In this document: one piece after another, positions 2,883 to 24,613 of the stretch
Layout of the letters: each line of letters starts with the position of its first letter
Numbering within the stretch: the first letter of the stretch is position 1
NCBI RefSeq assembly: GCF_004102945.1
Contig: NZ_CP019384.1
Location: 1,050,001-1,082,000, forward strand
Length of the DNA: 32,000 nucleotides
Source of the DNA: Candidatus Velamenicoccus archaeovorus
GTDB lineage: Bacteria; Omnitrophota; Gorgyraeia; Velamenicoccales; Velamenicoccaceae
Direction: 5' to 3'
Program-made: the position numbers and the translations under genes
The notes under the pieces: generated by a model
Database searches by the model: none
Told to the model about the DNA's origin: nothing
The model's input: only the letters and a program-made list of their open reading frames with translations

Positions 2883-4473
2883 GAGGCAACACGGCTCCAT
2901 CCTTTAACAACTTATACTCGATGCTGTCGACCAACGCCAGCCAGCTGGCTTCAATGATATTCTCCGAAACGCCCACCGTCGTCCAGGAGTCGCGTTCATC
3001 CTGCGACTGGATGAGGACGCGCACCTTCGCGGCTGTCCCGTCCTTGGCATCCAGCACCCTGACCTTGAAATCGGAAAGGTGCATCTTGGAAACAACCGGA
3101 TAAAAACCCTTCAACGCCTTGCGCAGGGCATTGTCCAGGGCGTTCACAGGACCGTCCCCATCGGACGACGTATGTTCCTGAACGCCCCCCACTTTCAGCT
3201 TGATCGTGGCCTCAGAGGTAATCGTCCCTTTTTGGCGTTTCTCGACGATCACGCGAAAACCCTCAAGCTCGAAAAACTTTTTATATTGTTTCAGGGCCCG
3301 CTTGACCAGGATCTCAAAGCTCGCGTCTGCCGCCTCGAACTGGTAGCCCTCATGTTCCAGGTCCTGGAGCAATTTGACGACTCTCTTGGTGTCGGGCGAA
3401 TCTTTTTTCAATTGCAGCTTGAGCTCTTCGGCCTTGGTCAGGATGGGCGTCTTACCGGCCAATTCCGAGACAAGGATCCTGCGGACGTTCCCCACGCGCT
3501 CAGGCTCGATATGCTCGTAGCTTTTTGGATTTTTGTAAACCGCGTTGATATGGACGCCGGCCTTATGGGCAAAAGCAGACTTGCCGACAAAAGGCTGGTT
3601 GTCGGCCTGCTTCATATTGCTGATCTCGCTGACGAAATGCGACACCTCCGTCAGCTCCTTGAGCTGCTCGTCTGTGACACAATCGAGGCCCATTTTCAAC
3701 TTCAGGATTCCGACGATAGGAATCAAATCCGCATTACCGCAGCGTTCACCATAACCGTTGATCGTCCCCTGCACCTGGACGCACCCGGCCTCGACGGCCG
3801 CAATGGAATTGGCCACCGCAAGACCAAGATCGTTGTGGACATGGATGCCCAAAGGAAGCTTCACATTCTTCTGGACATCGGCAATGACGGCAACGAGCTG
3901 CGACGTCAGCGTGCCGCCGTTGGTATCGCAGAGACAAAGCAACCGCGCGCCGCAGTCCTGGGCCGCCAGAAGCGTCGCCATCGCGTAGTCGCGGTTATGT
4001 TTATACGCATCGAAGAAATGCTCGGCGTCATAAATGAGCTCCAGCCCCTCTGCGACGAGATATTTGACGGAATCCCTGATGATCTCGAGGTTCTCCTCCA
4101 GGCTCACGCGCAGGACGTCGCGCACGTGCAAGTCCCAGGATTTTCCGAAGATAGTCGCAACCCGCACCCCTGAATGAAGGATGGCCGCAAAGACAGGGTC
4201 GTCCTTGGCTGCCACGCCCGCCTTGCGCGTAGCGCCGAAGGCGGTCAAGGCCGCGTTTTTGAGCGGGTGTTTCTTGAACTCCTCAAAAAACATCCTGTCC
4301 TTCGGGTTTGAGCCGGGAAATCCCCCTTCAATATAGGCGACGCCAAGCTCATCAAGCTTGCGCGCAATCTTGATCTTGTCCGCAACGGAATACGAGATCC
4401 CCTCTGTCTGGGAACCGTCGCGTAATGTCGTGTCGTAAAGCTCTATCTTTTTCATAACGGCCTCTCTGGTCAT
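2875..4473 (-). CDS. cimA: (R)-citramalate synthase (CimA-type member of the 2-isopropylmalate synthase family)
   Basis: The 532-aa ORF has the N-terminus MKKIELYDTTLRDGSQTEGISYSVADKIKIARKLDELGVAYIEGGFPGSNPKD and the length typical of the long CimA clade. It sits next to lysC as in Geobacter-type citramalate loci. The ATGA overlap with the lysC stop gives a start at 4473. An alternative start is the ATG at 4455, which has a GAGAGG RBS. Confidence 0.8.
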   Translation of the reverse strand: MTREAVMKKIELYDTTLRDGSQTEGISYSVADKIKIARKLDELGVAYIEGGFPGSNPKDRMFFEEFKKHPLKNAALTAFGATRKAGVAAKDDPVFAAILHSGVRVATIFGKSWDLHVRDVLRVSLEENLEIIRDSVKYLVAEGLELIYDAEHFFDAYKHNRDYAMATLLAAQDCGARLLCLCDTNGGTLTSQLVAVIADVQKNVKLPLGIHVHNDLGLAVANSIAAVEAGCVQVQGTINGYGERCGNADLIPIVGILKLKMGLDCVTDEQLKELTEVSHFVSEISNMKQADNQPFVGKSAFAHKAGVHINAVYKNPKSYEHIEPERVGNVRRILVSELAGKTPILTKAEELKLQLKKDSPDTKRVVKLLQDLEHEGYQFEAADASFEILVKRALKQYKKFFELEGFRVIVEKRQKGTITSEATIKLKVGGVQEHTSSDGDGPVNALDNALRKALKGFYPVVSKMHLSDFKVRVLDAKDGTAAKVRVLIQSQDERDSWTTVGVSENIIEASWLALVDSIEYKLLKDGAVLPHE

Positions 4474-5690
4474 GCCTGCTTGCCCAGACCGAATTTCGCA
4501 TGAATGGACCTGACGGCTTTTTCCGCATCCTTCTTTCTGATGATACAGGAAATACTGATCTCCGACGTTGTGATCATGCCGATATTGATCTTCTTCTGCG
4601 CCAACGCCTCAAACATGCCGGCGGCGACCCCCGAGTGCGTCTTCATGCCGACACCCACGATCGACACCCTGGCGATATCCTTATCTTCCAACACCTTGCC
4701 CGCATGAATCTTCGAAGCGAATTTCTCCATCACCTTTTTGGTCTTTGCCAGATCAGCGAGCGAGACGGTAAAAGAAACATCCGTAAAGCCCGTGCGGGAG
4801 ACGTTCTGGACGATCGTATCGACGTTGATCCCTTCGCGGGACAATTCGCGAAAGAGCTTGGCTGCAATCCCCGGCTTATCCGGGACATCGCACACGGTCA
4901 CCTTGGCTTCGTTCTTATTCAACGTGACGCCGCTGATAACAAAATCTTCCATTTTATCCGCCTCCTTTAAAATGAGCGTCCCCTCCGCCGCGTTGAAACT
5001 GGATCTCACATGAATGGGGATATCGAATTTTTTAGCCACCTCAATGGAACGCGCCTGCATGACCTGCGCCCCCAGCGATGCCATCTCCAGCATCTCGTCA
5101 TAGGTGATCTGTTTGAGCTTGCGCGCTTCAGGCACGATCCTGGGATCTGTCGTATAGACCCCTTCCACGTCCGTGTAGATCTCGCACGTCTTGGCACCTA
5201 TGGCCTTGGCCAGGGCTACGGCCGTCAAGTCTGACCCTCCGCGGCCCAGCGTCGTGATATCCTGGTCCTGAGTCACCCCCTGGAAGCCGGCCACGATGAC
5301 GATCTTGCCTTCCTGGAGGGCCCTGCGGATGCGTCCTGCACTGATATCGACGATCTTGGCCTTGGTGTGTGTCTTGTCCGTCACGATGCCGACTTGCCCG
5401 CCCGTAAAAGAAATCGCATCGTAACCCAGCTCTTCGATCGCCATGGCCAAAAGCGAACAACTGATCTGTTCGCCGGTCGACAAAAGCATATCCATCTCCC
5501 TGGCAGGCGGCTCGCTTGTGATCTGGCCGGCCAGCTCGATCAATTCGTCTGTCGTATCGCCGAGCGCGGAAACGACCACGACCAGCTTCCAGCCCTTTGC
5601 CCTGTAGGAAACGACGCGGCGCGCCACATTTTTGATGCGGTCGACATTAGCAACAGAGCTCCCTCCGAATTTTTGAACAAGAACTTTCAT
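4470..5690 (-). CDS. lysC: aspartate kinase (monofunctional, with ACT domains)
   Basis: The 406-aa ORF starts MKVLVQKFGGSSVANVDRIKNVA, has GRGGSDLTAVALA, and carries C-terminal tandem ACT-like regions. Its start overlaps the cstA stop in an ATGA junction. Confidence 0.92.
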   Translation of the reverse strand: MKVLVQKFGGSSVANVDRIKNVARRVVSYRAKGWKLVVVVSALGDTTDELIELAGQITSEPPAREMDMLLSTGEQISCSLLAMAIEELGYDAISFTGGQVGIVTDKTHTKAKIVDISAGRIRRALQEGKIVIVAGFQGVTQDQDITTLGRGGSDLTAVALAKAIGAKTCEIYTDVEGVYTTDPRIVPEARKLKQITYDEMLEMASLGAQVMQARSIEVAKKFDIPIHVRSSFNAAEGTLILKEADKMEDFVISGVTLNKNEAKVTVCDVPDKPGIAAKLFRELSREGINVDTIVQNVSRTGFTDVSFTVSLADLAKTKKVMEKFASKIHAGKVLEDKDIARVSIVGVGMKTHSGVAAGMFEALAQKKINIGMITTSEISISCIIRKKDAEKAVRSIHAKFGLGKQA

Positions 5691-7294
5691 CGCTTCTGAC
5701 CCCTTTTGTTCCTGAAGAACGCCCGATAGACTTCTCCAACCATAACCAACGCCAATATCAAAAGGACAACACTCAATCCTGCCAAAAGATACTGCCCGCT
5801 TCTAAGATACGACAAATATTGGATCCCCAGGGCCGCCACCGTCGTCAGAAACATAAAAATAGCCGGCACAAGCGTATAACCTGTCGGCTTCTTCTTCATC
5901 AAAAACCAAAGGCTGGCGACAAATAACGCCAGCGCCGCCACAAGCTGATTGGACGCTCCGAAAATAGGCCATATCCGGCTCCAGGCCCCGGAAAACGCCA
6001 AAATGCCGGCAACGGCGACAACGATCAACGTCGAAACAAACCTGTTCGACAATCCCGTCAATTCCTGGGTAATATACCGGCAAACGCGTGTCGCCGTGTC
6101 CAGCGTCGTCAATATGAACGCATTCAAGATCATCACGGCGATATAGAGGCCGTAGTCCCCGAAGAAAACGCGCGTCAAACCGGTATACCCGGTCCCAAAC
6201 AGACAGATGGGTCCCTGGTCTTTGAACAATAAACAAAGATCTTGCTGGGTCTTTCCAGGGATGCCGCTGACAACGGCCAAAACAGCGATCAAGGCCACCA
6301 GCCCCTCGGCCACCATGGCGCCATAGCCGATTTTCCTGCCATGGCGTTCGCTGGCCAGCTGTTTTGATGTCGTGCCGCTGGCGATAATCGCATGGAAGCC
6401 GGAAATTGCGCCGCAGGCGATCGTCACGCACATCATCGGCCACAACGCCCCCTGGGACGTCTGCCAGGAAATAAAAGCCGGCTGCGTGATGACCGGCCGC
6501 GAGACCACCAGTCCCAGAAGCCCCATCCCCGCGCCGAAAAGCAAAAGAAAACTGCACAAATAATCGCGCGGCTGCAGAAGGATATTGACCGGCGTGACGG
6601 ACGCCGCAAAACAATAAACCAACAAAACTATCAGCCAAACAACATAGGCTTGGCCGCCGACATCAATGGGAACATATTTCCCGAGAAATAATAAGCCAGC
6701 CAAAAACAACAGGCCCAACACCGTCGAAAACGTCAAATTCGCCTTGCGGACATACATGAGATAACCCGTCAAAATAGCGACCGGGATAAGACCAAGGGAC
6801 GACAAGACGATCTTCTTCTCTGCAATGAATGTCTTGGCGCACAGATCCGCAAACACGGCGATCACAAGGATCAGAGTCAACCATACAAAGACAGAGAATA
6901 TCAGGCGCGCTTTGCGCGAGACGACCGTTGCCGAAACTTCAGCCACGGAAGCCCCTTCTTCGCGCACGGAGATCATGAGCGCCGCAAAATCATGCACTCC
7001 GCCCACAAGGACCGTTCCCAGGACGATCCAAACGACCGACGGAAACCAGCCCCACCAGATACACCCGATCACAGGGCCGATGATCGGACCGGCGCCGGCA
7101 ATGGAAGAAAAATGGTGGCCGAACAGAACAAGCCAGTTTTTGGCAGGAACATAATCCACGCCGTCGAACTTTTTGACGGCGGGCGTCTCCCTTCGGGGGT
7201 CGATAGGAAAAAGCCCTGCAATGCGGCCGCCGTATACAAAATACCCCAGCGCAAAAACCGCCAGACATCCGAGCAAAACAACCAAAGAACTCAT
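5687..7294 (-). CDS. cstA: carbon starvation protein CstA family transporter
   Basis: The 535-aa polytopic membrane protein has the conserved CstA block HHFSSIAGAGPIIGPVIGCIWWGWFPSVVWIVLGTVLVGGVHDF. Confidence 0.85.
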   Translation of the reverse strand: MSSLVVLLGCLAVFALGYFVYGGRIAGLFPIDPRRETPAVKKFDGVDYVPAKNWLVLFGHHFSSIAGAGPIIGPVIGCIWWGWFPSVVWIVLGTVLVGGVHDFAALMISVREEGASVAEVSATVVSRKARLIFSVFVWLTLILVIAVFADLCAKTFIAEKKIVLSSLGLIPVAILTGYLMYVRKANLTFSTVLGLLFLAGLLFLGKYVPIDVGGQAYVVWLIVLLVYCFAASVTPVNILLQPRDYLCSFLLLFGAGMGLLGLVVSRPVITQPAFISWQTSQGALWPMMCVTIACGAISGFHAIIASGTTSKQLASERHGRKIGYGAMVAEGLVALIAVLAVVSGIPGKTQQDLCLLFKDQGPICLFGTGYTGLTRVFFGDYGLYIAVMILNAFILTTLDTATRVCRYITQELTGLSNRFVSTLIVVAVAGILAFSGAWSRIWPIFGASNQLVAALALFVASLWFLMKKKPTGYTLVPAIFMFLTTVAALGIQYLSYLRSGQYLLAGLSVVLLILALVMVGEVYRAFFRNKRGQKR

Positions 7295-8484
7295 TTTAAG
7301 AATACTTCCATCAGTTGATGGCCCTCGAAATGAACCTCGCTCTTGCGGGCCTCTTCCTCCGTGAACCTCTCAAAACCGTTTTTGGCGATCCCCTGACCCA
7401 TCATCGTCATGCACACCCGATCTGCGACGTGCTTGCGCAGCTCGACGGGTGTCGCATGATCCGGCAAAACCATCAGACGCCAACCATTCCCGGAGGATTT
7501 GAAATGATCCAGAATCGTCCCCACGACCAATTTATCGAACCGCTCGATACAGGCGATCTTGTTACGCAGATCGCCGTTGTGGCCCGCCTCGTCGGTGGCC
7601 TCCACGTGGATAAAAACAAAATCCAGGCGCTCCAGGGCTTTTAGACCTGCTTCAGCTTTCCCCGTATAATTCGTATCGTAGTAGCCCGTCGCCCCCTCCA
7701 CGTTGATCACCTCAAGGCCGATCAGCTTACCGATCCCCTTGATAAGATCAACGGCTGAGATCACCGCGCCGGTCACGCCGTACTTCTGGCGGAACAGAGG
7801 CATCTGGCTCTTTTGCCCCTGCCCCCATAACCAGATCATGTTGGCCGGGTTCTCGTGCAAGTCAAGCCTCACCCTGTTGATCTCATGACGCGAAAGGACG
7901 TCTTTGGACTTCTCCATCAGCTCGAGAAGGACTTGCGCGCCCTTGCCTTTCGGTATGTGCCTGCGGATGGGCTCGCCCAGGATATCATGAGGAGGTGCGC
8001 ATAGGCACCGGCTCAATTCTTCCACGGGATATCCCCGAAGCACGGCCAAATGTCTGTAGCTGACGCCCGGATAAAACCTGACGGCATCGGAACCCAACCC
8101 CCTGTTCAACTCCTGGATAAGGACGGAGGCCTCGTGAGTAGAGATATGCCCCGCACTGTAATCGGCCATCTTTTCGTCGGCAATCGTCACGAGATTGCAG
8201 CGGAAGGCGACATCCTGCGCCGTTAAATCGACGCCGAGATGGGCGGCTTCCAGCGGAGCGCGCCCGGAATAGAACTCCCTAGGATCATAGCCGATGATGG
8301 AAAGATTGGCGACATCCGAGGCAGGGGCCATGCGGTCAGGAATGGTCGTCACCTGGGCAAGGAGCCCGTTCTTGACGACATAATCCATGTTCGGCGTCTC
8401 CGCCACTTCCAGCGGAGTCTTGCCGCCTAATTTTTCGACGGGATAATCAGCCATCCCGTCCGGGACAAGCACGATATATTTCAT
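7291..8484 (-). CDS. apgM: archaeal-type cofactor-independent phosphoglycerate mutase family protein (ApgM-like); candidate non-canonical homoserine kinase
   Basis: MKYIVLVPDGMADYPVEKLGGKTPLEVAETPNMD and HVEATDEAGHNGD are typical of the ApgM / metalloenzyme superfamily. I prefer the start at the ATG 8484-8482 (AGGA RBS). The ORF is open up to 8523. Confidence 0.8.
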   Translation of the reverse strand: MKYIVLVPDGMADYPVEKLGGKTPLEVAETPNMDYVVKNGLLAQVTTIPDRMAPASDVANLSIIGYDPREFYSGRAPLEAAHLGVDLTAQDVAFRCNLVTIADEKMADYSAGHISTHEASVLIQELNRGLGSDAVRFYPGVSYRHLAVLRGYPVEELSRCLCAPPHDILGEPIRRHIPKGKGAQVLLELMEKSKDVLSRHEINRVRLDLHENPANMIWLWGQGQKSQMPLFRQKYGVTGAVISAVDLIKGIGKLIGLEVINVEGATGYYDTNYTGKAEAGLKALERLDFVFIHVEATDEAGHNGDLRNKIACIERFDKLVVGTILDHFKSSGNGWRLMVLPDHATPVELRKHVADRVCMTMMGQGIAKNGFERFTEEEARKSEVHFEGHQLMEVFLK

Positions 8485-8535
8485 CAGCGATCCTGCAAAG
8501 ACAGATCCTGTGCCGGACGTCAAGGTTCCGGTGCA

Positions 8536-16568: not shown

Positions 16569-17321
16569 CTAAGCGATCACCCGATCGGTCTTCTTGGTAC
16601 GGATCTTCGCCACCTCCCAGGAATAATCATAGAGGTGCAATCCCTTGGAAGCGGCGACAATCTCTCCGTCTTCGACGCCGATCATCTCGGCCATATACTG
16701 CTTCACCAATTGCAGACCGCCGAGGTTTGAAGGAAAACCGCCCCAGAGATCCCAGGAGCGAAAATAAAGAAAAAAATGAAGCTTGCGGTCCCTCACTTTT
16801 GTGTCGATCAGCCTCAGGCAAGGCGGATCCTGGAGCTTGATGTCCGACGGCATGCCGATCTCCATGACGGCCTGGTTGGTCCCAAAACCTTCTTGCCTGT
16901 ACATCCTGATGACTTCATCAATCTGATTGACATGCAAGGGCAACTCCCGGACCATCTGACGGCCGTCCTTGTCTTCAGCGAAACGCACCTTGGGATCCAC
17001 CAGCCTTTCGCCATAGGTATAGTCTTCCGTCTCGGTTTTCGCTCCGGTCAACAAATACGAAAGATATCCCTGGATGTAGTCCATGTCCGTCGGAGCCGGG
17101 ATATTCAGGCCTTCAGGGATGATAGGAATGATTTGATGCGAAGGTTTGCGCACCCGAACGACAACGAAATCAAACTCCAGACGCTTGGAACCCTTGTAGC
17201 TGCCCCGTGTAATGGTATAGACCCGACCCTTGTCCAGAATAGCCGATAACGTCTGGAACCAGGCGTCGTCCAGGTCAAAAGCATCCACAAATACAGGAGA
17301 AAGGAATTGTTCCGTAGGCAT
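16569..17321 (-). CDS. thymidylate synthase family protein (archaeal-type ThyA-like)
   Basis: The 250-aa ORF has the C-terminal half NQIDEVI...DPPCLRLIDTKVRDRKLHFFLYFRSWDLWGGFPSNLGGLQLVKQYMA...GLHLYDY. This aligns by eye with the ThyA core (DQI...APCH..[33 protein letters not shown]...THLY), including the catalytic Cys. The N-terminal half is divergent, as in methanogen-type enzymes. Confidence 0.7.
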   Translation of the reverse strand: MPTEQFLSPVFVDAFDLDDAWFQTLSAILDKGRVYTITRGSYKGSKRLEFDFVVVRVRKPSHQIIPIIPEGLNIPAPTDMDYIQGYLSYLLTGAKTETEDYTYGERLVDPKVRFAEDKDGRQMVRELPLHVNQIDEVIRMYRQEGFGTNQAVMEIGMPSDIKLQDPPCLRLIDTKVRDRKLHFFLYFRSWDLWGGFPSNLGGLQLVKQYMAEMIGVEDGEIVAASKGLHLYDYSWEVAKIRTKKTDRVIA

Positions 17322-17337: not shown

Positions 17338-17715
17338 CTATCGCGGCCCGATCAACCGGTGGATCTCCTCCAAAAGCTCCTTCGGATCATAGGGCTTTGC
17401 CAGGAAAAAATTATGTCCGAGCTCATGGCCCTCTGTTTGCTCTTCCCTCTTGGTATAAAGACACGTCAGAAACAGGATCGGGATATCCTTGGTCTTGGCA
17501 TCCTTCCTCAGGATGCCGGCGACTTCCGAACCGTCCATCCCCGGCATGGCGATATCCAGGATGATGAGGTCCGGAGTTTTTTTCTGGGCAAGGGCGACAG
17601 CTTCCTTTCCACAGGAAGCCTTGATGACCTCGTAACCCGCCTTGGCGAGACGCTCGCCAAGCAACTTCAGCACATCCGGCTCATCGTCGACAATCAGCAA
17701 TTTTTGCTTGTCCAT
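17338..17715 (-). CDS. single-domain response regulator (receiver only)
   Basis: The 125-aa ORF has LLIVDDEPDV, the phospho-acceptor context DLIILDIAMPGMDG, and KP near the C-terminus. There is no output domain. Confidence 0.88.
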   Translation of the reverse strand: MDKQKLLIVDDEPDVLKLLGERLAKAGYEVIKASCGKEAVALAQKKTPDLIILDIAMPGMDGSEVAGILRKDAKTKDIPILFLTCLYTKREEQTEGHELGHNFFLAKPYDPKELLEEIHRLIGPR

Positions 17716-17719
17716 ATCC

Positions 17720-18109
17720 TCATTCCTCCTCTTTCTTATTCAACGCCATGCGCAAGACGAAATTCAGTTTTTCCGGATCATACGGCTTTGTCAGGAAAAA
17801 TTCCCCGCCGGCCTGCTTGCCCATTTCAATATCTTCTTTCTGGGCCAGAACGCTTAAAAAAACGACGGGGATCCCTTTCGTCGCATAATCCGATTTGAGC
17901 TTCTTGCAGACTTCGATACCGTTGAAATACGGCATCATGATATCAAGAATGATCAAATCCGGCTTCATGGATTTCGCCATCTCAATGCCCGTATAGCCGT
18001 CTTCTGCGACGATAACATCGAAACCGAAAGAAACGAGCCTGAATTTCAGCAAATTCCTCAAGCCCACTTCATCATCGATGATGAGGATCGTTTTCTTATC
18101 TTCTGCCAT
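17720..18109 (-). CDS. single-domain response regulator (receiver only)
   Basis: The 129-aa ORF has ILIIDDEVGL, DLIILDIMMPYFNG and FLTKPYDP. It is a paralogue of the adjacent receiver, from which it is separated by 4 nt. Confidence 0.88.
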   Translation of the reverse strand: MAEDKKTILIIDDEVGLRNLLKFRLVSFGFDVIVAEDGYTGIEMAKSMKPDLIILDIMMPYFNGIEVCKKLKSDYATKGIPVVFLSVLAQKEDIEMGKQAGGEFFLTKPYDPEKLNFVLRMALNKKEEE

Positions 18110-18112
18110 AAT

Positions 18113-21100
18113 TTACCCGCGTGTTATGGGAAGAGTGAATTTAAAGGTTGATCCCTCTCCCAATGTGGACTCAACCCAAATACGGCCCCCCATGGCTTCT
18201 ACCAGGTTGCGGGAAATGTAAAGCCCGAGCCCCGTCCCCCCGACCCGCCGCACAAGCGTGCTGTCGAGCTGAACGAATTTTCCGAAAAGGCGCGCAATCT
18301 CCTCCTGGGGAATCCCCACCCCTTCATCTTTGATGCTGAATTCTACGGAATCATGGACCTGCCGCACCGCCAGGACGATCCTGCTGCGCTCCCGCGTAAA
18401 TTTAATGGCATTGTTCAAGAGATTCATCAATACCTGGATGAGCCTATCTTTGTCCGCCATCGCCGACGGCAGGTCTTTCTGGCAATCGGTGACAAACACC
18501 AGCCCCCGTTTTTCAATCTCGATCCTGACCAGACTGTATACCTGATCGATGACCTCGCAAATATTGCACGGGCTCATATGGACTTTGAGCAAGTTGGATT
18601 GGATCTTCGAGATATCGAGGATATCGCCGATCAGGCGGTTCAAACGGTTGATATTGGACAAGGCGATCTGAAGACACTCCTTCTGGTTCCTGTTGATCTT
18701 TCCCTGGGTGCCGTCGGCGACGATCTCGACCCCCTCCTTGATGGCCGACAAAGGCGTCCTGAGCTCGTGGGAAACCATCGAGACAAATTCGGTCTTGATC
18801 TTCTCGATCTTTTTGCGTTCCGTAATGTCGCGAATATTGCATTGAATGATCTTGCGCTTTTCGACGAAATAGGTAGAGGCCCTGAATTCTGCCTCGATCT
18901 CCCTCCCCGTGCACGTCTTGAGCCTCACATCATCATACAAGACAGACATCTGTTCCTTGAGGGCCAAAAAGGCCCTGTCGTAAACCTGGGACTCGCGGAA
19001 AAAAGGAACAGCGTTGTAATGCAGGCCCATCAACTGGTCTCTTGTGCACTCCAGGATATGCAAAAGATACGGATTGGCGCTGATGATGTTTCCGCTCGAG
19101 GCGTCGATGATCAGTATGCCGTCCTGGGCCGATTCAAAAAGGTTCCTGAACATGAGTTCGGAGACCTGTAAAGCCCTCGTCCTCTCTTCGATCAAGTTCT
19201 CCAGGTCATGCGAATAACGCTTCAATTCATCTTCCAGGCGCTTGCGATCGGTCACGTCGTGAGAGATGTGGATGACCCCGATGATGCGCCCCTTTTCATC
19301 CTTCAGGGGCGAGAGGGTTACATCCACATAAGCCTCGCGGCCGTCGCGCATTTTATGGATATGCGTGGATTCGATCGTCCGGCCGTGCTTGGCGACCTCT
19401 TCAAACGAACAGGCCTCGCAGGCGGAACAAACGTGCCGGTAGACCTCTGAACACGGCTTACCGATGACATCTTCCTTGCGCATGCCCGCCTGCTCCATAA
19501 AATAACGGTTAACATCCAGGACGACCTTGGTGTTGCAGTCAAGCACGATCAGTGAATCGCTGATGGAATCGATGACATTGCGCGACAGGGCCCGCTCGAA
19601 TTCCAGCATCTCGACCATGCTCTTGCGTTCCGTCATATCCAGCGTCAACTCCAGGACCTGCTCCACTTCCCCCCGCTCATTTTTGACCGGAGTGCAAATC
19701 AGGAGAAAATCTATGACCCGGCCGTCGGGGAAAACCGACCTCTCTTCACCCGTCTGCACCTGACCCGTCTCCATGGCCCTTCGCGAAGGACATGTCAGAC
19801 AGACAGAATCACGAAGTTGATATACCTCGAAGCACTTGCGCCCCTGGATCGTGCCCAGTTTGCCGAACCACTTCTCCATAACCTGGTTGACCCAGACGAT
19901 ATTAAAATTCTTATCGATAAGCGACAGTCCCGCTCCGATAGAATCGGCAATCGTCTTGAGACGGCCGCGCTCTTCCGACAGGGAAGCTTCCAGGTGTTTT
20001 TGCTCCGTCACATCCTGGATGATGCCGTAAAAAACTTCCCCGTACCTTTCGTCATGCTTAACCACTGCAGTGACCGAGGCCCAGAAAAGACGTCCTTTAA
20101 GGGTCTTGCCGCGAAATTCGTAATTCTTTACGAAACCGTTCTTGAGCAACATATCGCTGAAACGCTTTCTTTCTGCGGGATCGGCATACAAAGTCTTCAC
20201 AGAGATATTTTCCACGGAATCGGTCTCGAAAATTTTAAGCAGCGCCGGATTTGCCTCAAAAAACCTGCCATCGGGACCCGGCGTATTGATATAGACGCCT
20301 ACGTTAAGACTCTCAACAAGGTCCCTGTATTTTTCCTGCGTCTCGAGCAGTTCCTTTTCAATCCTGCGGATCCCGCTCTTGTCGATACCGATCCCCAGAA
20401 AACCGACGAGCTCTCCCTTGTCGTTCCGTATGCCGGCAATGGTCAAATCGACAGGAAAGCGCGTGCCGTCTTTCTTGACCATGATCCATTCGCGCTGAAG
20501 AACACCGCCTTGCCGTACGACCTCTGTGATTACCTCGAAACCATGCAAATCCTTCCCTGTCTTTCTGCAGAATTCCTCCTCGAAAAGCCTCAAATCTGCG
20601 GGGTCATGAAGGACAAGGGGCGTCTTTCCCAAAATCTCTGAAGCGGTATATCCGAAGAGCTCTTGCGCCCCATCGTTCCACATCTGAAAAGCACCCGACA
20701 AGTTCGTAGCGCACATGGAAATTTGGCTGGCGCCATCCAGAAAAGACCTTAGCCTCGCATGGGCGTCCGCCAGTCTCTCTTCATAGCGCTTGTGGGTCGT
20801 GATATCTTGCGCCAAGCCCAGGACAAACAGGATATGCCCCTGCGGATCTTTCACCGGGAATACCGTCAGGGCGACGTCCAGTTCTTCGCCGTCCATGTTC
20901 TTTTGGGCCAGTTCACGGATGAGGGTATGCCCCTCGAACACCTCCATAATCTCACTTTCCAAAGAAACAACGCCCAGCACATCCGTCACCTTCCTGCTCC
21001 GGAGAGGATTTCTTTCATCAATGACATCGGCCTTGCGGTAACCGTAGAGTTTTTCGGCCCCTTGATTCCAAAAGATCAGACGCAGATCCCTGTCAAAGCC

Positions 21101-22588
21101 AAAGATGGCATTAGGCGAATTATTAAGGATGCCCCGAAACGTCTCCTCTGACCTCGCCAGCTCCCGCTGTGCTTCACGCAGACTTACGAGAGCCTTATCG
21201 AGGTTGTCTTTCTGGATCTGTAATTCAAGCCCTTTGAGCGCGAAGATGATCAAGAACGCATAACCAACCACCAGCAGGATGAGGAAACTAAAACATATGC
21301 CGATGACAAAAAGCCTGACGCGATACACTTCCCCTTGAAGCTTGGCAACGTCAATATCGACCCCCAAAAGGGCCAGGGCCTGATCGTCCTTATCAAGAAC
21401 GGGGAAAAAAACCGTATAGGCGGGACGGCCGTCATTCCCCAGATAGGGCCCGACGAGCGTCGGTTTCTTTGAATAAAAAGAATCCGCAATCGCCTTCTGA
21501 GGGATTTGAGCGCCGAAGGACGGGACGACCTCGTGCGGAAAAACCTGGGGCGAGCTTCCGACGGCAAAAGAAAAACGGTCTTTTCCCGGCAGGATCAAAT
21601 ACAGCGCCTTCGTGTAGAGCGACAGCTCGGGCAGGTCCGACATGCGGTTATGCATTTTAAGATACTTCTTGTAAACGGATACGTCCTCCTCGGCAATGAA
21701 CTGACGGACATCCAGTGTCCCGATAATATCCGCCAGGTTCCTGGCGTCCGTCAGGACAAGCTGCTTGAGGTGTTTTTTCTCGAACTTGTCAACAGATCCC
21801 ATAAGCATGAATCCGCCGGCGAAGAAAACGAGATAGAAAAAGAGAAAACTGTACATGAGGACCTGGCGGCGCCTCCCTCTGACATTTCTGGATGGAAGAT
21901 CAAGGACATAACGGGTGGCCTGATGGATCAAAAGAAAGGCGACAAGCATCGCCCCTAAAGCGCGTTGGAAAGCCGCCGGAACCAGAAAGGCATAATAAAA
22001 AGACGGTTGGCTCGCGGACAAAGCGGGAAGCGTGGCGATCTGGAGAGGCGCTAACGGCAAACAGTAAAAGAAAAAAGCAATGCCAATAAAACGGTAGCTC
22101 CAGCGTGAACTGGCTCTCTCCTGCCTCGAAGAATAAAGCAAAAACACGGCTCCTGCCGCAAAAGTCGCCGGCCCCCTCAATGTCACGGTGATAAATCCGT
22201 TTAATATCGAGGCGTTGCGGATAAAAAACAAACCGAGCACGAAAACGCCGAAAGGCAGGATATACAGCCATTTATTGATTTGTTTTCCGCTCAAAAGGAC
22301 GTAGGAACTTCGGGAGAATTCCATGAGAAAAACGAAAGAAGCGACGAGCAGGATAAGACGCAAGCTGTTGAATAAAGATGGGTCCGCGTTAGATATGGCC
22401 AAGAGATCGAGCCATTTATTCAAAGCGCGCAAAAGAGCAAAAAATACGAAAAACAACCAGTTCAATGTCAATGCATGGTGCGATCTTTCGCGAATATAAA
22501 AAATAAAACCGGCGGACGCCAAAAGAAAAAATGCCGCGCCATAAAAGAAATAAAGATAGTCTAAGTTCTGCAGGAAAAATAGCTGCAT
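18113..22588 (-). CDS. membrane-bound multi-PAS sensor histidine kinase (1491 aa)
   Basis: Residues 1-265 hold about 8 hydrophobic segments. Residues 266-425 are a probable extracytoplasmic segment, followed by a TM at 426-452 and a coiled coil. Six PAS-like modules lie between about residues 480 and 1260. The HisKA motif is SHELRTPL (H1274) and the HATPase_c region has NLLNNAIKFT and GTGLGLYISR. Confidence 0.9.
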   Translation of the reverse strand: MQLFFLQNLDYLYFFYGAAFFLLASAGFIFYIRERSHHALTLNWLFFVFFALLRALNKWLDLLAISNADPSLFNSLRLILLVASFVFLMEFSRSSYVLLSGKQINKWLYILPFGVFVLGLFFIRNASILNGFITVTLRGPATFAAGAVFLLYSSRQERASSRWSYRFIGIAFFFYCLPLAPLQIATLPALSASQPSFYYAFLVPAAFQRALGAMLVAFLLIHQATRYVLDLPSRNVRGRRRQVLMYSFLFFYLVFFAGGFMLMGSVDKFEKKHLKQLVLTDARNLADIIGTLDVRQFIAEEDVSVYKKYLKMHNRMSDLPELSLYTKALYLILPGKDRFSFAVGSSPQVFPHEVVPSFGAQIPQKAIADSFYSKKPTLVGPYLGNDGRPAYTVFFPVLDKDDQALALLGVDIDVAKLQGEVYRVRLFVIGICFSFLILLVVGYAFLIIFALKGLELQIQKDNLDKALVSLREAQRELARSEETFRGILNNSPNAIFGFDRDLRLIFWNQGAEKLYGYRKADVIDERNPLRSRKVTDVLGVVSLESEIMEVFEGHTLIRELAQKNMDGEELDVALTVFPVKDPQGHILFVLGLAQDITTHKRYEERLADAHARLRSFLDGASQISMCATNLSGAFQMWNDGAQELFGYTASEILGKTPLVLHDPADLRLFEEEFCRKTGKDLHGFEVITEVVRQGGVLQREWIMVKKDGTRFPVDLTIAGIRNDKGELVGFLGIGIDKSGIRRIEKELLETQEKYRDLVESLNVGVYINTPGPDGRFFEANPALLKIFETDSVENISVKTLYADPAERKRFSDMLLKNGFVKNYEFRGKTLKGRLFWASVTAVVKHDERYGEVFYGIIQDVTEQKHLEASLSEERGRLKTIADSIGAGLSLIDKNFNIVWVNQVMEKWFGKLGTIQGRKCFEVYQLRDSVCLTCPSRRAMETGQVQTGEERSVFPDGRVIDFLLICTPVKNERGEVEQVLELTLDMTERKSMVEMLEFERALSRNVIDSISDSLIVLDCNTKVVLDVNRYFMEQAGMRKEDVIGKPCSEVYRHVCSACEACSFEEVAKHGRTIESTHIHKMRDGREAYVDVTLSPLKDEKGRIIGVIHISHDVTDRKRLEDELKRYSHDLENLIEERTRALQVSELMFRNLFESAQDGILIIDASSGNIISANPYLLHILECTRDQLMGLHYNAVPFFRESQVYDRAFLALKEQMSVLYDDVRLKTCTGREIEAEFRASTYFVEKRKIIQCNIRDITERKKIEKIKTEFVSMVSHELRTPLSAIKEGVEIVADGTQGKINRNQKECLQIALSNINRLNRLIGDILDISKIQSNLLKVHMSPCNICEVIDQVYSLVRIEIEKRGLVFVTDCQKDLPSAMADKDRLIQVLMNLLNNAIKFTRERSRIVLAVRQVHDSVEFSIKDEGVGIPQEEIARLFGKFVQLDSTLVRRVGGTGLGLYISRNLVEAMGGRIWVESTLGEGSTFKFTLPITRG

Positions 22589-22642
22589 GATGATCTGTCT
22601 GTTGTGCCTTGATCCAGCCTTCGGAAGAAGCCGGAGTGAAAC

Positions 22643-22667
22643 AAAAAACTGCGGAGCCCCTCCGCAG
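22643..22667 (-). terminator. intrinsic terminator (or 5' leader hairpin) between the tRNA-Gly island and the kinase gene
   Basis: The minus strand reads CTGCGGAG-GGG-CTCCGCAG followed by TTTTTT, 55 nt upstream of the kinase ATG. Confidence 0.55.
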
Positions 22668-22893
22668 TTAAATAATAATATTAATCCTTATGCATGATCA
22701 ACCGCCATGACCTTTGAGAAGTTTTAAATAACTAAACGCGTAACCCTATGTTAACACAAACACTTAAGTGAGTCAATGGGGTGATCAAGGAAGGAAGATC
22801 TGGAGCGGGAGATGGTACGTAAAACTCGCCTCGGCCCGTAAAATATTCGTATTCCACAGGGCAAACCTTTACATCAACTTGTCCCGAATCAAA

Positions 22894-23004
22894 GTCAACC
22901 CATATTCCCCGGCCTTGCCCTCGGCCTCCGGCCATGTTTCGGGTACCTCTAAGCGGCCTCAACACTCTCCGCCCTAAAGGGCGGAGTTTTAGGCCGCGCA
23001 GAGT
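22894..23004. repeat. structured intergenic repeat, copy 2 (111 bp)
   Basis: It is a direct-orientation match to 8536-8674. The 58-nt 3' module has the same length and is about 90% identical by eye. It contains the perfect hairpin ctccgccc-taaa-gggcggag. Confidence 0.75.
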
Positions 23005-23010
23005 GAAATC

Positions 23011-23100
23011 CAAACGGGATCCCGTCACGTCTCCGTTCAATAGAGCGGGTGATCGGAATCCCCGCCTGCCGGCGGGCAGGGAACCGACGTAACCAGCTTG
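23011..23100 (-). pseudogene. duplicated tRNA-Gly 3' portion plus trailer, with a 20-nt GC hairpin inserted in the T-loop
   Basis: 69 of 70 positions are identical to 23123-23192 (the tRNA-Gly trailer plus tRNA positions 36-73). The segment is interrupted at 23061-23080 by cccgcctgccggcgggcagg. Identity ends inside the anticodon, between positions 35 and 36. Confidence 0.8.
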
Positions 23101-23155
23101 TCCCGCACCGAAATGTTACAATCAAACGGGATCCCGTCACGTGTCCGTTCAATAG

Positions 23156-23226
23156 AGCGGGTGATCGGAATCGAACCGACGTAACCAGCTTGGAAGGCTA
23201 GTGTTCTACCATTGAACTACACCCGC
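23156..23226 (-). tRNA. tRNA-Gly (anticodon UCC), CCA not encoded
   Basis: Hand-folded cloverleaf: GCGGGTG TA GTTC AATGGTA GAAC A CTAGC CTTCCAA GCTGG TTAC GTCGG TTCGATT CCGAT CACCCGC T (71 nt). Confidence 0.9.
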
Positions 23227-23509
23227 GAAATCTGAACATGACGGGAGAAGGCTAGGTCCTCCACAATGCGGAATGCGGAGACCTGCCCTTTCTGGGCTAG
23301 TATTCACCCACTGTTCCGACGCTCCGAAAAAACGGAGGTCGAAATCCCGACCCCGGACGCTTTTGGGCCGGGCGTCGGGAAACTACTCCCGCAATCAATC
23401 AAGAAACTCAAAATCAAACAGCGCATTGCGGGAGTCACATTAATGTATCACTGCCCGCCGTAGGCGGGTCCGCCTTCGGCGGAAACTACTCCCGCAAAGA
23501 AATGAAATC

Positions 23510-23632
23510 GGAATACACTTTGGTTGTGGCGCTGGATTTCGCTGCATGGCTTTGTCGCCATGCGACGCGAAATCCGCATCCCTACCTGCCTGGCCTTTGG
23601 CCAAGCGGGCGTTTTTCCCTCTGCCGGGGAAA
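23510..23632 (-). repeat. degenerate 123-bp unit of the tRNA-Tyr-linked hairpin repeat
   Basis: It is colinear with the 91-bp unit (aatacactttggttgtggcgctgg... versus acaacaaggtggtggcgtcgg...; ...cgcatccctacc...ttttt versus ...ggcatccaccattttttt). It has its own long hairpin, ggatttcgc-t-gcatggc-tttgtc-gccatgc-gac-gcgaaatcc, and an extra insert of about 25-30 bp. Confidence 0.55.
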
Positions 23633-23640
23633 TACACTAA

Positions 23641-23903
23641 GGTGGTGGCGTCGGAACAATCTGTTTCGCTTATCGCTCCACAACGATTGTTCCGGCATCC
23701 ACCATTTTTTTGCTCTGTCGCTTTACAACAAGGTGGTGGCGTCGGAACAATCTGTTTCGCTTATCGCTCCACAACGATTGTTCCGGCATCCACCATTTTT
23801 TTGCTCTGTCGCTTTACAACAAGGTGGTGGCGTCGGAACAATCTGTTTCGCTTATCGCTCCACAACGATTGTTCCGGCATCCACCATTTTTTTGCTCTGT
23901 CGC
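23641..23903 (-). repeat. perfect tandem repeat, 91-bp unit x 2.9, abutting the 3' end of tRNA-Tyr
   Basis: Units start at 23641, 23732 and 23823 and are identical at every position I compared. The last unit is cut at 81 nt, where it runs into aaaaaaatggtgg and the tRNA-Tyr CCA end. Confidence 0.92.
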
Positions 23904-23910
23904 AAAAAAA

Positions 23911-23996
23911 TGGTGGACGGGAGAGGATTCGAACCTCTGAAGCATGTGTGCAGCAGATTTACAGTCTGCCCCCTTTAGCCACTTGGGTACCCGTCC
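23911..23996 (-). tRNA. tRNA-Tyr (anticodon GUA), class II long variable arm, CCA encoded
   Basis: Hand-folded cloverleaf: GGACGGG TA CCC AAGTGGCTAAA GGG G GCAGA CTGTAAA TCTGC TGCACACATGCTTC AGAGG TTCGAAT CCTCT CCCGTCC A CCA (86 nt). Confidence 0.9.
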
Positions 23997-24122
23997 AAAT
24001 TTTGACAGGCAAGGTATTTCTACCTTGCAAAATTTGCCCCGAAGTCTAATCCAAAAATCATCTCCAAACATGCTCAAGATAATTTTTGAATTGTCTTAGA
24101 CAAGGGGCCGATATATTCAAAG

Positions 24123-24195
24123 AGCTGGCGACCCGAATCGAACGGGTGACCCTCTCATTACAAGTGAGATGCTCTACCTGCTGAGCTACGCCAGC
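24123..24195 (-). tRNA. tRNA-Thr (anticodon UGU), CCA not encoded
   Basis: Hand-folded cloverleaf: GCTGGCG TA GCTC AGCAGGTA GAGC A TCTCA CTTGTAA TGAGA GGGTC ACCCG TTCGATT CGGGT CGCCAGC T (73 nt). It begins 3 nt after the stop of the upstream endonuclease ORF. Confidence 0.9.
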
Positions 24196-24198
24196 AAA

Positions 24199-24613
24199 TC
24201 ACTTATCAAAGAAATCAAATCTGGCTTCATATCTGGAAGCCGGAACAATTTTCTCTTGCTGGTTATTTCTCGCCGGAATCAGGCGTATTTTAAAACTGCT
24301 CCTGTTGCTGATATTTTTAAGCGGTACAAAATAAACCTTGCGTGCTGCATCATGGTATGCCGCTATAATATCAACATCCAGCGGCGAATAATGAATAACT
24401 TTGTGATTATTACAACTCCTTAGGGGGATCTCAAGAATTCCGTTTTTGGCAGAGACATATTTGACTTGGACTTTTTTATAGATACCGTTCTTTTCCGCCA
24501 CCATATCAAATCTATGATCTTCTCCCCAGGGGACAAGAACATGGAAACCCCTCTGCTTGAGCAAAAAAAACATAGGCTTCGGCGATATCACCCTTGAGCT
24601 TTGTTTCTGCCAT
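24199..24613 (-). pseudogene. PD-(D/E)XK endonuclease of the group-I-intron-associated type, frameshifted in a T8 run
   Basis: The ATG at 24613-24611 directly follows the stop of the upstream gene and gives MAETKLKGDIAEAYVFF. That frame then stops after 33 codons. The 130-aa track ORF continues in another frame with LLKQRGFHVLVPWGEDHRFDMV...KKVQVKY. Removing one T from the run (plus-strand A8 at 24563-24570) joins them into a KGDIAE...G..V..P.G.....D...QVK pattern typical of this family. Confidence 0.7.

Follow-up and report, generated by a model that had tools for sequence, protein, structure and literature searches.

What kind of element are the three identical hairpin units that stand in tandem directly behind the tRNA-Tyr gene of Candidatus (Ca.) Velamenicoccus archaeovorus? 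We addressed this question in a window of 32,000 nt (the whole stretch of DNA analysed, positions 1,050,001 to 1,082,000 of contig NZ_CP019384.1, numbered below from its own first letter), where a first inspection of the letters by a model, here called the sequence-only reading, had pointed out the array. Our favoured answer, to which we give a probability of about 0.5, is that a lineage-specific family of structured-RNA modules is represented here by one member in triplicate; modules of this family occupy the trailers and spacers of tRNA operons in this bacterium and in related Omnitrophota.

For comparison we used 13 orthologous Thr-Tyr(-Gly) loci besides the window, which carry 0-4 units behind tRNA-Tyr. 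One belongs to UBA6210 (Ca. Omnitrophica bacterium, L003) and was reached by a genome scan with a 21-mer from the unit, and 12 are metagenome loci reached by a scan with the 5' half of tRNA-Tyr. The identity of their flanking DNA to the window goes from ~95% (L011, L017) down to 66-72% (L010, L016, L007). A covariance model built from the Tyr units, called R1, was used for scoring.

The array and its junction with tRNA-Tyr

The only array that Tandem Repeats Finder detects in the window is a perfect one with a period of 91 nt at 23639-23903 (2.9 copies, 100% matches, score 530), and the longest run of positions equal to those 91 nt further on, 174 positions, covers the same tract. The array adjoins tRNA-Tyr (23911-23996) on the same, minus, strand. 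Read on that strand, the order is tRNA-Tyr ...GUCC-A-CCA, U7-GC-GACAGA-GC-A7 and then the units, each being UGGUGG-AUGC-CGGAACAAUC-(23 nt)-GAUUGUUCCG-ACG-CCACCA-CC followed by UUGUUGUAAA-GCGACAGAGC-A7. The features from the tRNA outwards are the following:

23911-23996, minus strand: tRNA-Tyr(GTA), found with ARAGORN and given 59.4 bits by the Rfam tRNA model; its 3' end reads ...CCCGUCC-A-CCA, with CCA encoded, and then U7
23878-23919, minus strand: tRNA-trailer hairpin (core 23881-23916), CCACCA-U7-GC-GACAGA-GC-A7-UGGUGG, with a predicted fold of -27.8 kcal/mol (z = -9.4)
23823-23886, minus strand: unit copy 1, proximal to the tRNA, by its fold a 64-nt minihelix UGGUGG-AUGC-stem-GUUGUGGAGCGAUAAGCGAAACA-stem-ACG-CCACCA-CC; 88.7 bits with R1
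23796-23822, minus strand: internal linker 1, UUGUUGUAAA-GCGACAGAGC-A7, holding the duplication-junction motif GCGACAGAG, from sequence and motif spacing
23732-23795, minus strand: unit copy 2, the same as copy 1 by identity check; 88.7 bits with R1
23705-23731, minus strand: internal linker 2, the same as linker 1 by Tandem Repeats Finder and identity check
23641-23704, minus strand: unit copy 3, distal, the same as copies 1 and 2 by identity check; 88.7 bits with R1
23606-23640, minus strand: distal linker UUAGUGUAUUUCCCC-GGCAGA-GGGAAAAACGCCCGC, orthologous by sequence comparison to the linkers of L008 and L011
23522-23584, minus strand: unit 4, a diverged "F-type" unit ending CGCCACAACC; 41.2 bits with R1 (E = 1e-9), placed in alignment A1

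The three units had been called identical base for base. This is right for the 64-nt hairpin cores, which are three exact copies (23641-23704, 23732-23795 and 23823-23886), and not for the full period, which occurs only 2.9 times: the 91-nt units starting at 23641 and 23732 agree at all 91 nt, whereas the one starting at 23823 shares only its first 81 nt, the final 10 positions, at the junction with the tRNA, containing 7 mismatches. A 21-mer from the unit occurs three times in the window against 0.00 expected from shuffles. The array had also been taken as three units only, which overlooks the fourth, diverged unit at 23522-23584. That each unit is a long hairpin is borne out by its predicted fold (-30.7 kcal/mol, z = -4.6), and the tRNA and array region as a whole reaches z = -9.1. 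The "23-nt loop" of the first description is itself folded: two short helices, of 3 bp and 2 bp, are separated by an internal loop with two G.A oppositions, and a GAUAA loop caps the second.

The hairpin that had been proposed at 23881-23916, on the 3' end of tRNA-Tyr, is present with the fold energy given above. It can lengthen into the acceptor 3' strand via GGAUG/CGUCC, giving a lock of 17-19 bp on the real tRNA-Tyr 3' end. Over nine sequences, 94% of its cells pair and double-sided change is seen in 10 of 16 pairs, a result that none of 500 shuffles matches. The tRNA trailer and the next leader vary jointly across loci (CCACCA/UGGUGG, CCACAA/UUGUGG and CCAUAA/UUAUGG), and so do the U-run with the A-run and the closing pairs. 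Where the leader has a choice between the tRNA trailer and the tail of its own unit (L010, L017 and UBA6210), it fits the tRNA trailer, which argues that a hairpin in cis is maintained and not a pairing to the mature CCA end. A T-box-like role for the UGGU leader, in which it would capture the ends of mature tRNAs, was rejected, since its covariation is with the genomic trailer (CAA, UAA) and not with an added CCA. A covarying hairpin that sequesters the last nucleotides of tRNA-Tyr provides a testable model for tRNA 3'-end maturation. The motif of the linkers (U-run, GAYARA loop, A-run) was found 12 times in the window and loci L001-L018, always on the tRNA strand and always within modules.

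How did the array become threefold? The perfect periodic tract starts at the first G of GCGACAGAG (23903). This motif lies at offsets 93, 184 and 275 in the window, and at offsets 93 and 184 in L008 and in L011, the latter with flanks ~95% identical, so that in both relatives two motifs stand 91 nt apart with a single A-type unit between them. The 91-nt period is thus the ancestral spacing of two GCGACAGAG linker loops, and a recent unequal exchange explains the triplication; the probable event, a recent one, was unequal crossing-over between these loops or slippage during replication. Judging from this comparison, the triplication must postdate the split from the L011 lineage. The sequence-only reading had taken the perfect identity as a sign of recent amplification, and the ~95%-identical relative with one A-type unit against three in the window agrees with it. 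An independent two-copy array, with a period of 89, was found in L016.

The contigs of several relatives stop within module arrays, at tRNA-Tyr in L006, L007 and L017 and at tRNA-Pro in L020 and L021. This suggests that module arrays at tRNA loci routinely break short-read Omnitrophota assemblies, a practical concern for assemblers.

A module family and its cognate tRNA ends

The loci carry the following numbers of units behind tRNA-Tyr:

0 units: L012, L013, L015
1 unit: L014
2 units: UBA6210, L009, L010, L016
3 units: L008, L011
4 units (three identical and one diverged): the window

The element is therefore not special to this spot and is rather one member of a family whose copy number varies in relatives. 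Nearly all units are exactly 64 nt long, from NNNNGG-AUG to CCANNNCC, and they fall into several sequence types with differing stems and one common fold. In the ungapped alignment A2 of eight distinct units, 90% of the cells pair and double-sided changes occur in 11 of 20 pairs; none of 500 shuffles reaches the real value, and slid controls give 30-48%. RNAalifold recovered the main helix independently. Covariation extends into the former "23-nt loop" (pairs 24-42, 25-41 and 29-37, around the internal loop with its two G.A oppositions), which ends in a GAUAA/GACAA loop. The U8.G56 wobble is invariant across units; the opposite strand would have an A.C mismatch there. Modules are always in the orientation of the tRNA, and the unit types hold the same order at orthologous positions in genomes with 73-95% flank identity. 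By mismatch count, unit A of the window shares 95-97% identity with its counterparts in L008 and UBA6210, with flanking genes at 73-88%. Conserved length, conserved fold and covariation together show that the family exists.

The unit ends provide a further line of evidence. In the Tyr unit the top reads GGAUG/CGCC-A-CCA against GGACG/CGUCC-A-CCA in tRNA-Tyr, so that 6-8 nt of the tRNA are copied; the bulged A of the unit corresponds to A3, whose partner is missing, and U8.G56 to C4-G69 after mutation. The window holds a second locus of this kind:

12281-12470, minus strand: module locus behind tRNA-Pro (12571-12645), found with R1 and by sequence

It begins with a remnant of the tRNA-Pro 3' part ending CCCCGACCA (CCA end) and a linker U6CC-GAUAA-GGA6, continues with a unit at 12341-12406 whose ends are UGGUCG...CGACCA-CC (38.5 bits with R1, E = 6.5e-9), and past this full unit shows a second linker and a truncated unit. 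In L010, a unit after a tRNA-Gly 3' fragment ends AGCGGG...CCCGCA (28.5 bits with R1). The R1 alignments give Tyr, Pro and Gly units a common core, GCGAGC(C)GAUAAG(G)CGAGCAG. Each of the three thus carries a copy of the cognate acceptor with discriminator and NCCA-like tail, which is GGAUG/CGCC-A-CCA for Tyr, CG.../...CG-A-CCA for Pro and GCGGG/CCCGC-A for Gly. At the level of sequence, the unit ends are hereby shown to match their cognate tRNA, and the idea that the array was seeded by, and copies, the tRNA 3' terminus gains ground from all three loci. Behind tRNA-Pro, the relative L019 has an intact gene and then a 105-nt module in 2.9 copies of 99% identity (2134-2438), L022 has one module (2340-2440) and L024 none.

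We also asked how far the modules are dispersed. All R1 hits with E < 1e-3 lie in tRNA operons (32-kb window plus ~160 kb of related loci, ~190 kb in total); a generic REP sequence with no tRNA linkage, which the sequence-only reading had named as the finding that would weaken its case, was not encountered in this DNA, every confident match being tRNA-linked. In the representative genome of UBA6210 the unit 21-mer has a single match. Its four matches in other phyla (Bacteroidota, Pseudomonadota) have no tRNA at any of the four loci and at most 16 bits with R1, two that were inspected (L001, L005) lie inside long open reading frames (ORFs), and these matches are treated as chance. Viral contigs that were scanned contain three matches to the linker motif with no tRNA near, which by eye are only an isolated linker-like hairpin.

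Rfam, searched with gathering cut-offs and with E <= 10, found tRNAs alone, the matches to YrlA, sX4 and HgcC at 16-19 bits being noise. Coding was rejected as well: the ORFs that cover the array extend over the tRNA gene and match nothing in Pfam, and a 39-aa ORF from the conserved AUG, also without Pfam match, is shifted in frame by the 91-nt period and stops after 5 codons in UBA6210 unit 1. The long plus-strand ORFs are thus artefacts, as first noted.

Possible function and competing explanations

A module of ~91 nt is composed of an A/U-rich linker hairpin with a GAYARA loop and the 64-nt minihelix. In its top pairs, its discriminator and the nucleotides that follow, the minihelix reproduces the acceptor end of the tRNA next to it, and the module leader (A-run plus UGGU) is complementary to the element before it, namely to the 3' end of that element and its U-rich trailer. 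We place at even odds the proposal that the modules are co-transcribed spacer and trailer RNAs, recognised by the tRNA-maturation machinery via their acceptor-like ends and long helices. Among the roles listed at the outset, the minihelix mimic or processing module would be the one to favour.

The canonical terminator stands only after the tRNA-Gly region, and in L014 and L009 a response-regulator gene begins 20-40 nt past the last unit, which suggests that the units are inside the transcription unit. They would be transcribed together with tRNA-Thr, tRNA-Tyr and tRNA-Gly. RNase P would then cut 5' of the U|GG start of a unit, RNase Z or 3' exonucleases may act at its A-CCA-like end, and RNase III might cut the long helices. 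Such cleavage would free tRNA-Tyr and define its 3' trailer, and minihelix RNAs of ~60-90 nt would be released, by analogy with the RtT RNA from the E. coli tyrT transcript. The size of the array would shift through unequal exchange.

A bolder proposal, which we regard as rather unlikely, is that the modules form a novel class, mimics of the tRNA acceptor end that derive from tRNA ends and in turn act on tRNA biology. If true, either stable minihelix RNAs freed by RNase P and RNase Z would compete with or buffer the tRNA 3'-end enzymes, or a new element would propagate specifically at tRNA genes by copying the ends of its target. In either version, the RtT repeats of E. coli and the Omnitrophota family would be convergent solutions to one task at tRNA-Tyr operons.

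Several observations weigh against the view of the modules as functional RNAs of the tRNA operon, for which we infer transcription, cleavage sites and a function in trans. The minihelix is not a strict tRNA mimic, having ~15 stacked pairs against 12, then the internal loop and GAUAA loop, and no T-loop; the Rfam tRNA model matches true tRNAs only and not the units. The ACCA-like unit tail is base-paired to the leader and varies (CAA, AAA, CUG). The trailer hairpin is almost purely Watson-Crick, as expected of a DNA-level palindrome. Besides U8.G56, we counted three G.U pairs and four C.A mismatches; as a strand test this count is informative only for the invariant U8.G56, and with no G.U excess over C.A elsewhere, RNA-level selection on the tRNA strand is not proven. 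Rearrangement at the DNA level is also visible. The inner hairpin of unit 4 (23522-23584) is the reverse complement of the version in L008, L011 and L009 (GACAAA against UUUGUC loop), a small DNA inversion inside the stem, and a repeat search found inverted unit fragments at 23305-23325 and 24234-24249. Finally, L012, L013 and L015 have no copy of the units, and some relatives being without any, the modules are dispensable for tRNA-Tyr.

These points bring up elements of another kind. REP, BIME and REPIN sequences and the Rickettsia palindromic elements are imperfect palindromic extragenic hairpin repeats of variable copy number, which may insert in RNA genes and are dispersed genome-wide, with no specificity for tRNA ends. 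The Omnitrophota modules are likewise hairpin-forming imperfect palindromes of variable copy number; they differ in that every copy found is tRNA-linked, co-oriented and provided with tRNA-specific ends. A selfish palindromic DNA element (cf. REP/REPIN, Rickettsia palindromic elements and MITEs) that colonises tRNA gene ends and loops is unlikely and nevertheless the main rival, to be taken seriously. Under it, the stem covariation would come from the need for a single-stranded DNA hairpin in mobilisation, and identical tandem copies as well as presence or absence would reflect activity and not function. It would account for the 0-4 copies among close relatives, the hairpins inserted in D-, anticodon- and T-loops of broken tRNA copies, the inverted fragments and flipped inner hairpin just described, the nearly pure Watson-Crick pairing of the trailer hairpin and the homologous cores at three tRNA types. 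It sits badly with the tRNA linkage and co-orientation of all confident copies in the ~190 kb, with the single occurrence of the 21-mer in the UBA6210 representative genome and with the tRNA-specific ends, which a transposing unit would not carry along. Moreover, the unit types keep their order at orthologous positions and are conserved beyond the flanking genes, which fits vertical descent under selection. A scan of 20 window ORFs, to which five at 93-8523 did not belong, yielded no transposase, RAYT or integrase.

It is improbable that the units are neutral debris, that is, decayed tandem duplicates of tRNA-Tyr, -Pro and -Gly which keep acceptor ends and leader/trailer complementarity and are tolerated without function in the spacers. 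The unit tops are recognisable as the tRNA-Tyr acceptor with one deletion and one transition, partial tRNA copies abound at these loci and some relatives have no units. Such decay is hard to reconcile with the strict 64-nt length across diverged types, the compensatory change in 11 of 20 pairs, the GAYARA loops conserved on one strand and a conservation above that of the neighbouring genes; one non-tRNA core common to Tyr, Pro and Gly units would not result from independent decay.

A leaky terminator or attenuator cascade is a quite improbable alternative, in which read-through from tRNA-Tyr to tRNA-Gly and to the downstream kinase and regulator genes would be graded and copy number would tune polarity. 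A U-rich stretch does occur 2 nt past each stable helix (UUGUUGU in the internal linkers of the window, UUAGUGUUUUU and UUAGUGUAUUU elsewhere), and tRNA-Tyr itself has CCA and then U7. Against this, the tract is not conserved (UAAUAGAGCG in L014, UUAAUGUAAAC in L009) and the genes 20-40 nt past the last unit in these two loci leave no room for a promoter. A consensus scan rejects the units as intrinsic terminators: it flags none of them and does flag the canonical site farther downstream at 22647-22669. The tails past the units vary.

The copy number could also be mis-estimated by the assembly, the true locus having one or two units. The perfect 265-bp repeat exceeds many short reads and, as mentioned, contigs of L006, L007, L017, L020 and L021 break inside arrays. 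We consider such an artefact very unlikely, as the source record is a single 1.97-Mb contig and independent assemblies hold similar arrays (two identical units in L016, 2.9 copies of the 105-nt Pro module in L019 and at least two units of another type in L017); the family, its hairpins and its tRNA-end mimicry would stand even with one copy.

The least probable explanation by far, attachment sites from serial integration at the tRNA-Tyr 3' end, an option of the sequence-only reading, finds some echo in the tRNA 3' end being directly repeated after each unit and in partial tRNA 3' halves downstream of tRNA-Gly and tRNA-Pro, and fails because only 6-8 nt (not >=15) of tRNA-Tyr are repeated, the 91-nt spacing leaves no cargo, the 20 scanned ORFs contain no integrase and the tRNA-Gly half is duplicated together with the flank downstream of it, as in a tandem duplication and not in an attL/attR pair. 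Two further classes were considered. A type III toxin-antitoxin array was rejected on what lies downstream, namely tRNA-Gly, the terminator and a PAS histidine kinase. CRISPR was ruled out solely because whole 91-nt units are identical, in place of short repeats with unique spacers; no search was aimed at cas genes.

Related systems and other features of the window

The sequence-only reading knew of no described bacterial element with this architecture, which is incorrect. For E. coli, repeats downstream of tyrT have been on record since 1991 (Bosl and Kersten, as cited in PMC3318445), one tyrT-type repeat unit encodes a small RNA (PMC3318445), and the role of RtT is still described as unknown (bioRxiv 10.1101/2024.07.17.603846). 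Behind tyrT-tyrV of E. coli K-12, Tandem Repeats Finder gives a 178-bp repeat of 3.1 copies and 95% identity, annotated as rttR and tpr, which overlaps the last 19 nt of tyrV and thus repeats the tRNA-Tyr 3' end.

RtT (Rfam RF00391) and the Omnitrophota modules are both found directly behind tRNA-Tyr, in its orientation, as about three tandem units. In both, the tRNA 3' end is repeated at the end of every unit, over 19 nt in E. coli (AAUCCUUCCCCCACCACCA, including ACCA) and 6-8 nt in Omnitrophota. Like the modules, the E. coli unit folds with an upstream complement, GGGGAAGGAU, on the tRNA-end copy, leaving an ACCA-type tail. The common layout is therefore complement, core, tRNA-3'-end copy and ACCA tail. 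The differences are also clear. RF00391 (gathering cut-off 45 bits) has four matches of 133-137 bits in E. coli and none with E <= 10 in the window at 22500-24300 and in seven Omnitrophota loci, and R1 finds nothing in the E. coli locus. The Omnitrophota unit is half the size, one 64-nt minihelix plus a linker hairpin, and lacks a conserved small ORF such as tpr, the basic ORF within the E. coli repeats. Unlike RtT, it has sister units with matched ends at tRNA-Pro and tRNA-Gly, and its tRNA has its own 3' end sequestered in a covarying hairpin.

Deep homology between both was tried and rejected: the sole sign is a 10-nt identity, AACGACCCGA, for which a rough estimate gives ~0.3 expected by chance, and neither covariance model backs it. 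The RtT core AACGACCCGAAGGGCGAAGCG (E. coli, L018 700-760) resembles AACGACCCGAUAAGGGGCGUAGCG in L003 unit 1 and in L022, a likeness within chance by rough estimate and without covariance-model backing.

The literature searched on Velamenicoccus and Omnitrophota makes no mention of these elements. The family is absent from that literature and from Rfam; its layout, that of the RtT-type tRNA-operon repeats, is a known one. The same plan of complement, core, tRNA 3'-end copy and tandem amplification in an unrelated family from a distant phylum suggests that the plan itself is selected. The comparative data are also richer than those of E. coli, with several sequence types, three tRNA identities, 0-4 copies and strong covariation.

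Other systems share single traits with the modules. RNase P separates polycistronic tRNA transcripts (PMC2190699, PMC7049720) and can cut 4-7 nt downstream of CCA, thereby removing a hairpin, the terminator of E. coli leuX (PMC2811032). A stable hairpin right after CCA is common to leuX and the present locus; the leuX hairpin is a Rho-independent terminator that ends a monocistronic transcript, whereas the Omnitrophota hairpin takes in the last nucleotides of the tRNA, is A/U-rich and is followed by more modules and genes. In mascRNA/MALAT1, a tRNA-like helix is the cleavage signal for RNase P and RNase Z. The CCACCA degradation tag resembles some native tRNA trailers (PMC5824355), and the A-CCA-CC motif at the unit end resembles this tag. 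Those two systems are eukaryotic or post-transcriptional, the Omnitrophota units have neither cloverleaf nor T-loop, and in relatives their CCACC decays to CAACC, AAACC or CUGCC.

The remaining features of the tRNA region are:

24122-24195, minus strand: tRNA-Thr(TGT), with which the Thr-Tyr-Gly cluster begins, CCA not encoded (ARAGORN; 69 bits with the Rfam tRNA model)
23428-23495, minus strand: hairpin cluster closed by GCGGGAGU/ACUCCCGC, which by sequence is the tRNA-Gly acceptor stem of relatives; another type of spacer element closed by a tRNA end
23239-23392, minus strand: broken tRNA-Gly copy with hairpins inserted in the D-loop and after the anticodon stem, from comparison with the intact tRNA-Gly of relatives
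23155-23226, minus strand: tRNA-Gly(TCC), intact, CCA not encoded (ARAGORN; 72 bits with the Rfam tRNA model)
23011-23112, minus strand: second copy of the tRNA-Gly 3' half and its flank, whose T-loop holds an inserted GC hairpin of 20 nt (23061-23080), from repeat search and sequence
22647-22669, minus strand: canonical intrinsic-terminator-like site from the consensus scan, a 10-bp stem and then a U-tract, downstream of the tRNA region

The tRNA transcription unit likely ends at this last site. CCA is encoded after one of the four tRNA genes in the window, tRNA-Tyr, and not after Gly, Thr or Pro. The block 23381-23498, which contains the GC hairpin cluster, is 92-95% identical to UBA6210 and L008, with flanks and flanking genes at 73-88%, and the cluster is possibly another conserved spacer RNA whose end is tRNA-like. 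In the broken tRNA-Gly copy the D-loop insert spans ~70 nt (23311-23380) and the 3' end, UCUCCCGUCA, resembles the tRNA-Tyr 3' strand; comparable insertions in D- or anticodon loops occur in L019 (a tRNA-Pro copy) and in L011. The tandemly duplicated part comprises the tRNA-Gly 3' half and 32 nt of flank (98% over 50 nt), and its T-loop hairpin is CCUGCCCGCCGGCAGGCGGG.

Between tRNA-Thr and an NAD(P)H-hydrate dehydratase gene, the minus strand encodes a 130-aa PD-(D/E)XK endonuclease (24199-24591; Pfam PDDEXK_5, E = 8e-22), whose gene is absent from the UBA6210 locus. The inverted unit fragment at 24234-24249 lies in the 3' end of this gene and is 16 nt long, 15 of 16 identical. On the other side of the tRNA region, the minus strand encodes a 1491-aa multi-PAS histidine kinase (18113-22588) and then two single-domain response regulators (17720-18109 and 17338-17715); in several relatives, a response-regulator gene follows directly after tRNA-Tyr or the last unit. 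Next comes a 250-aa ORF (16569-17321, minus strand) with weak, sub-cut-off thymidylate synthase matches, the best to TIGR03283 (methanogen-type; 102.6 bits against a cut-off of 174.6), and its product may be a divergent ThyA-like enzyme.

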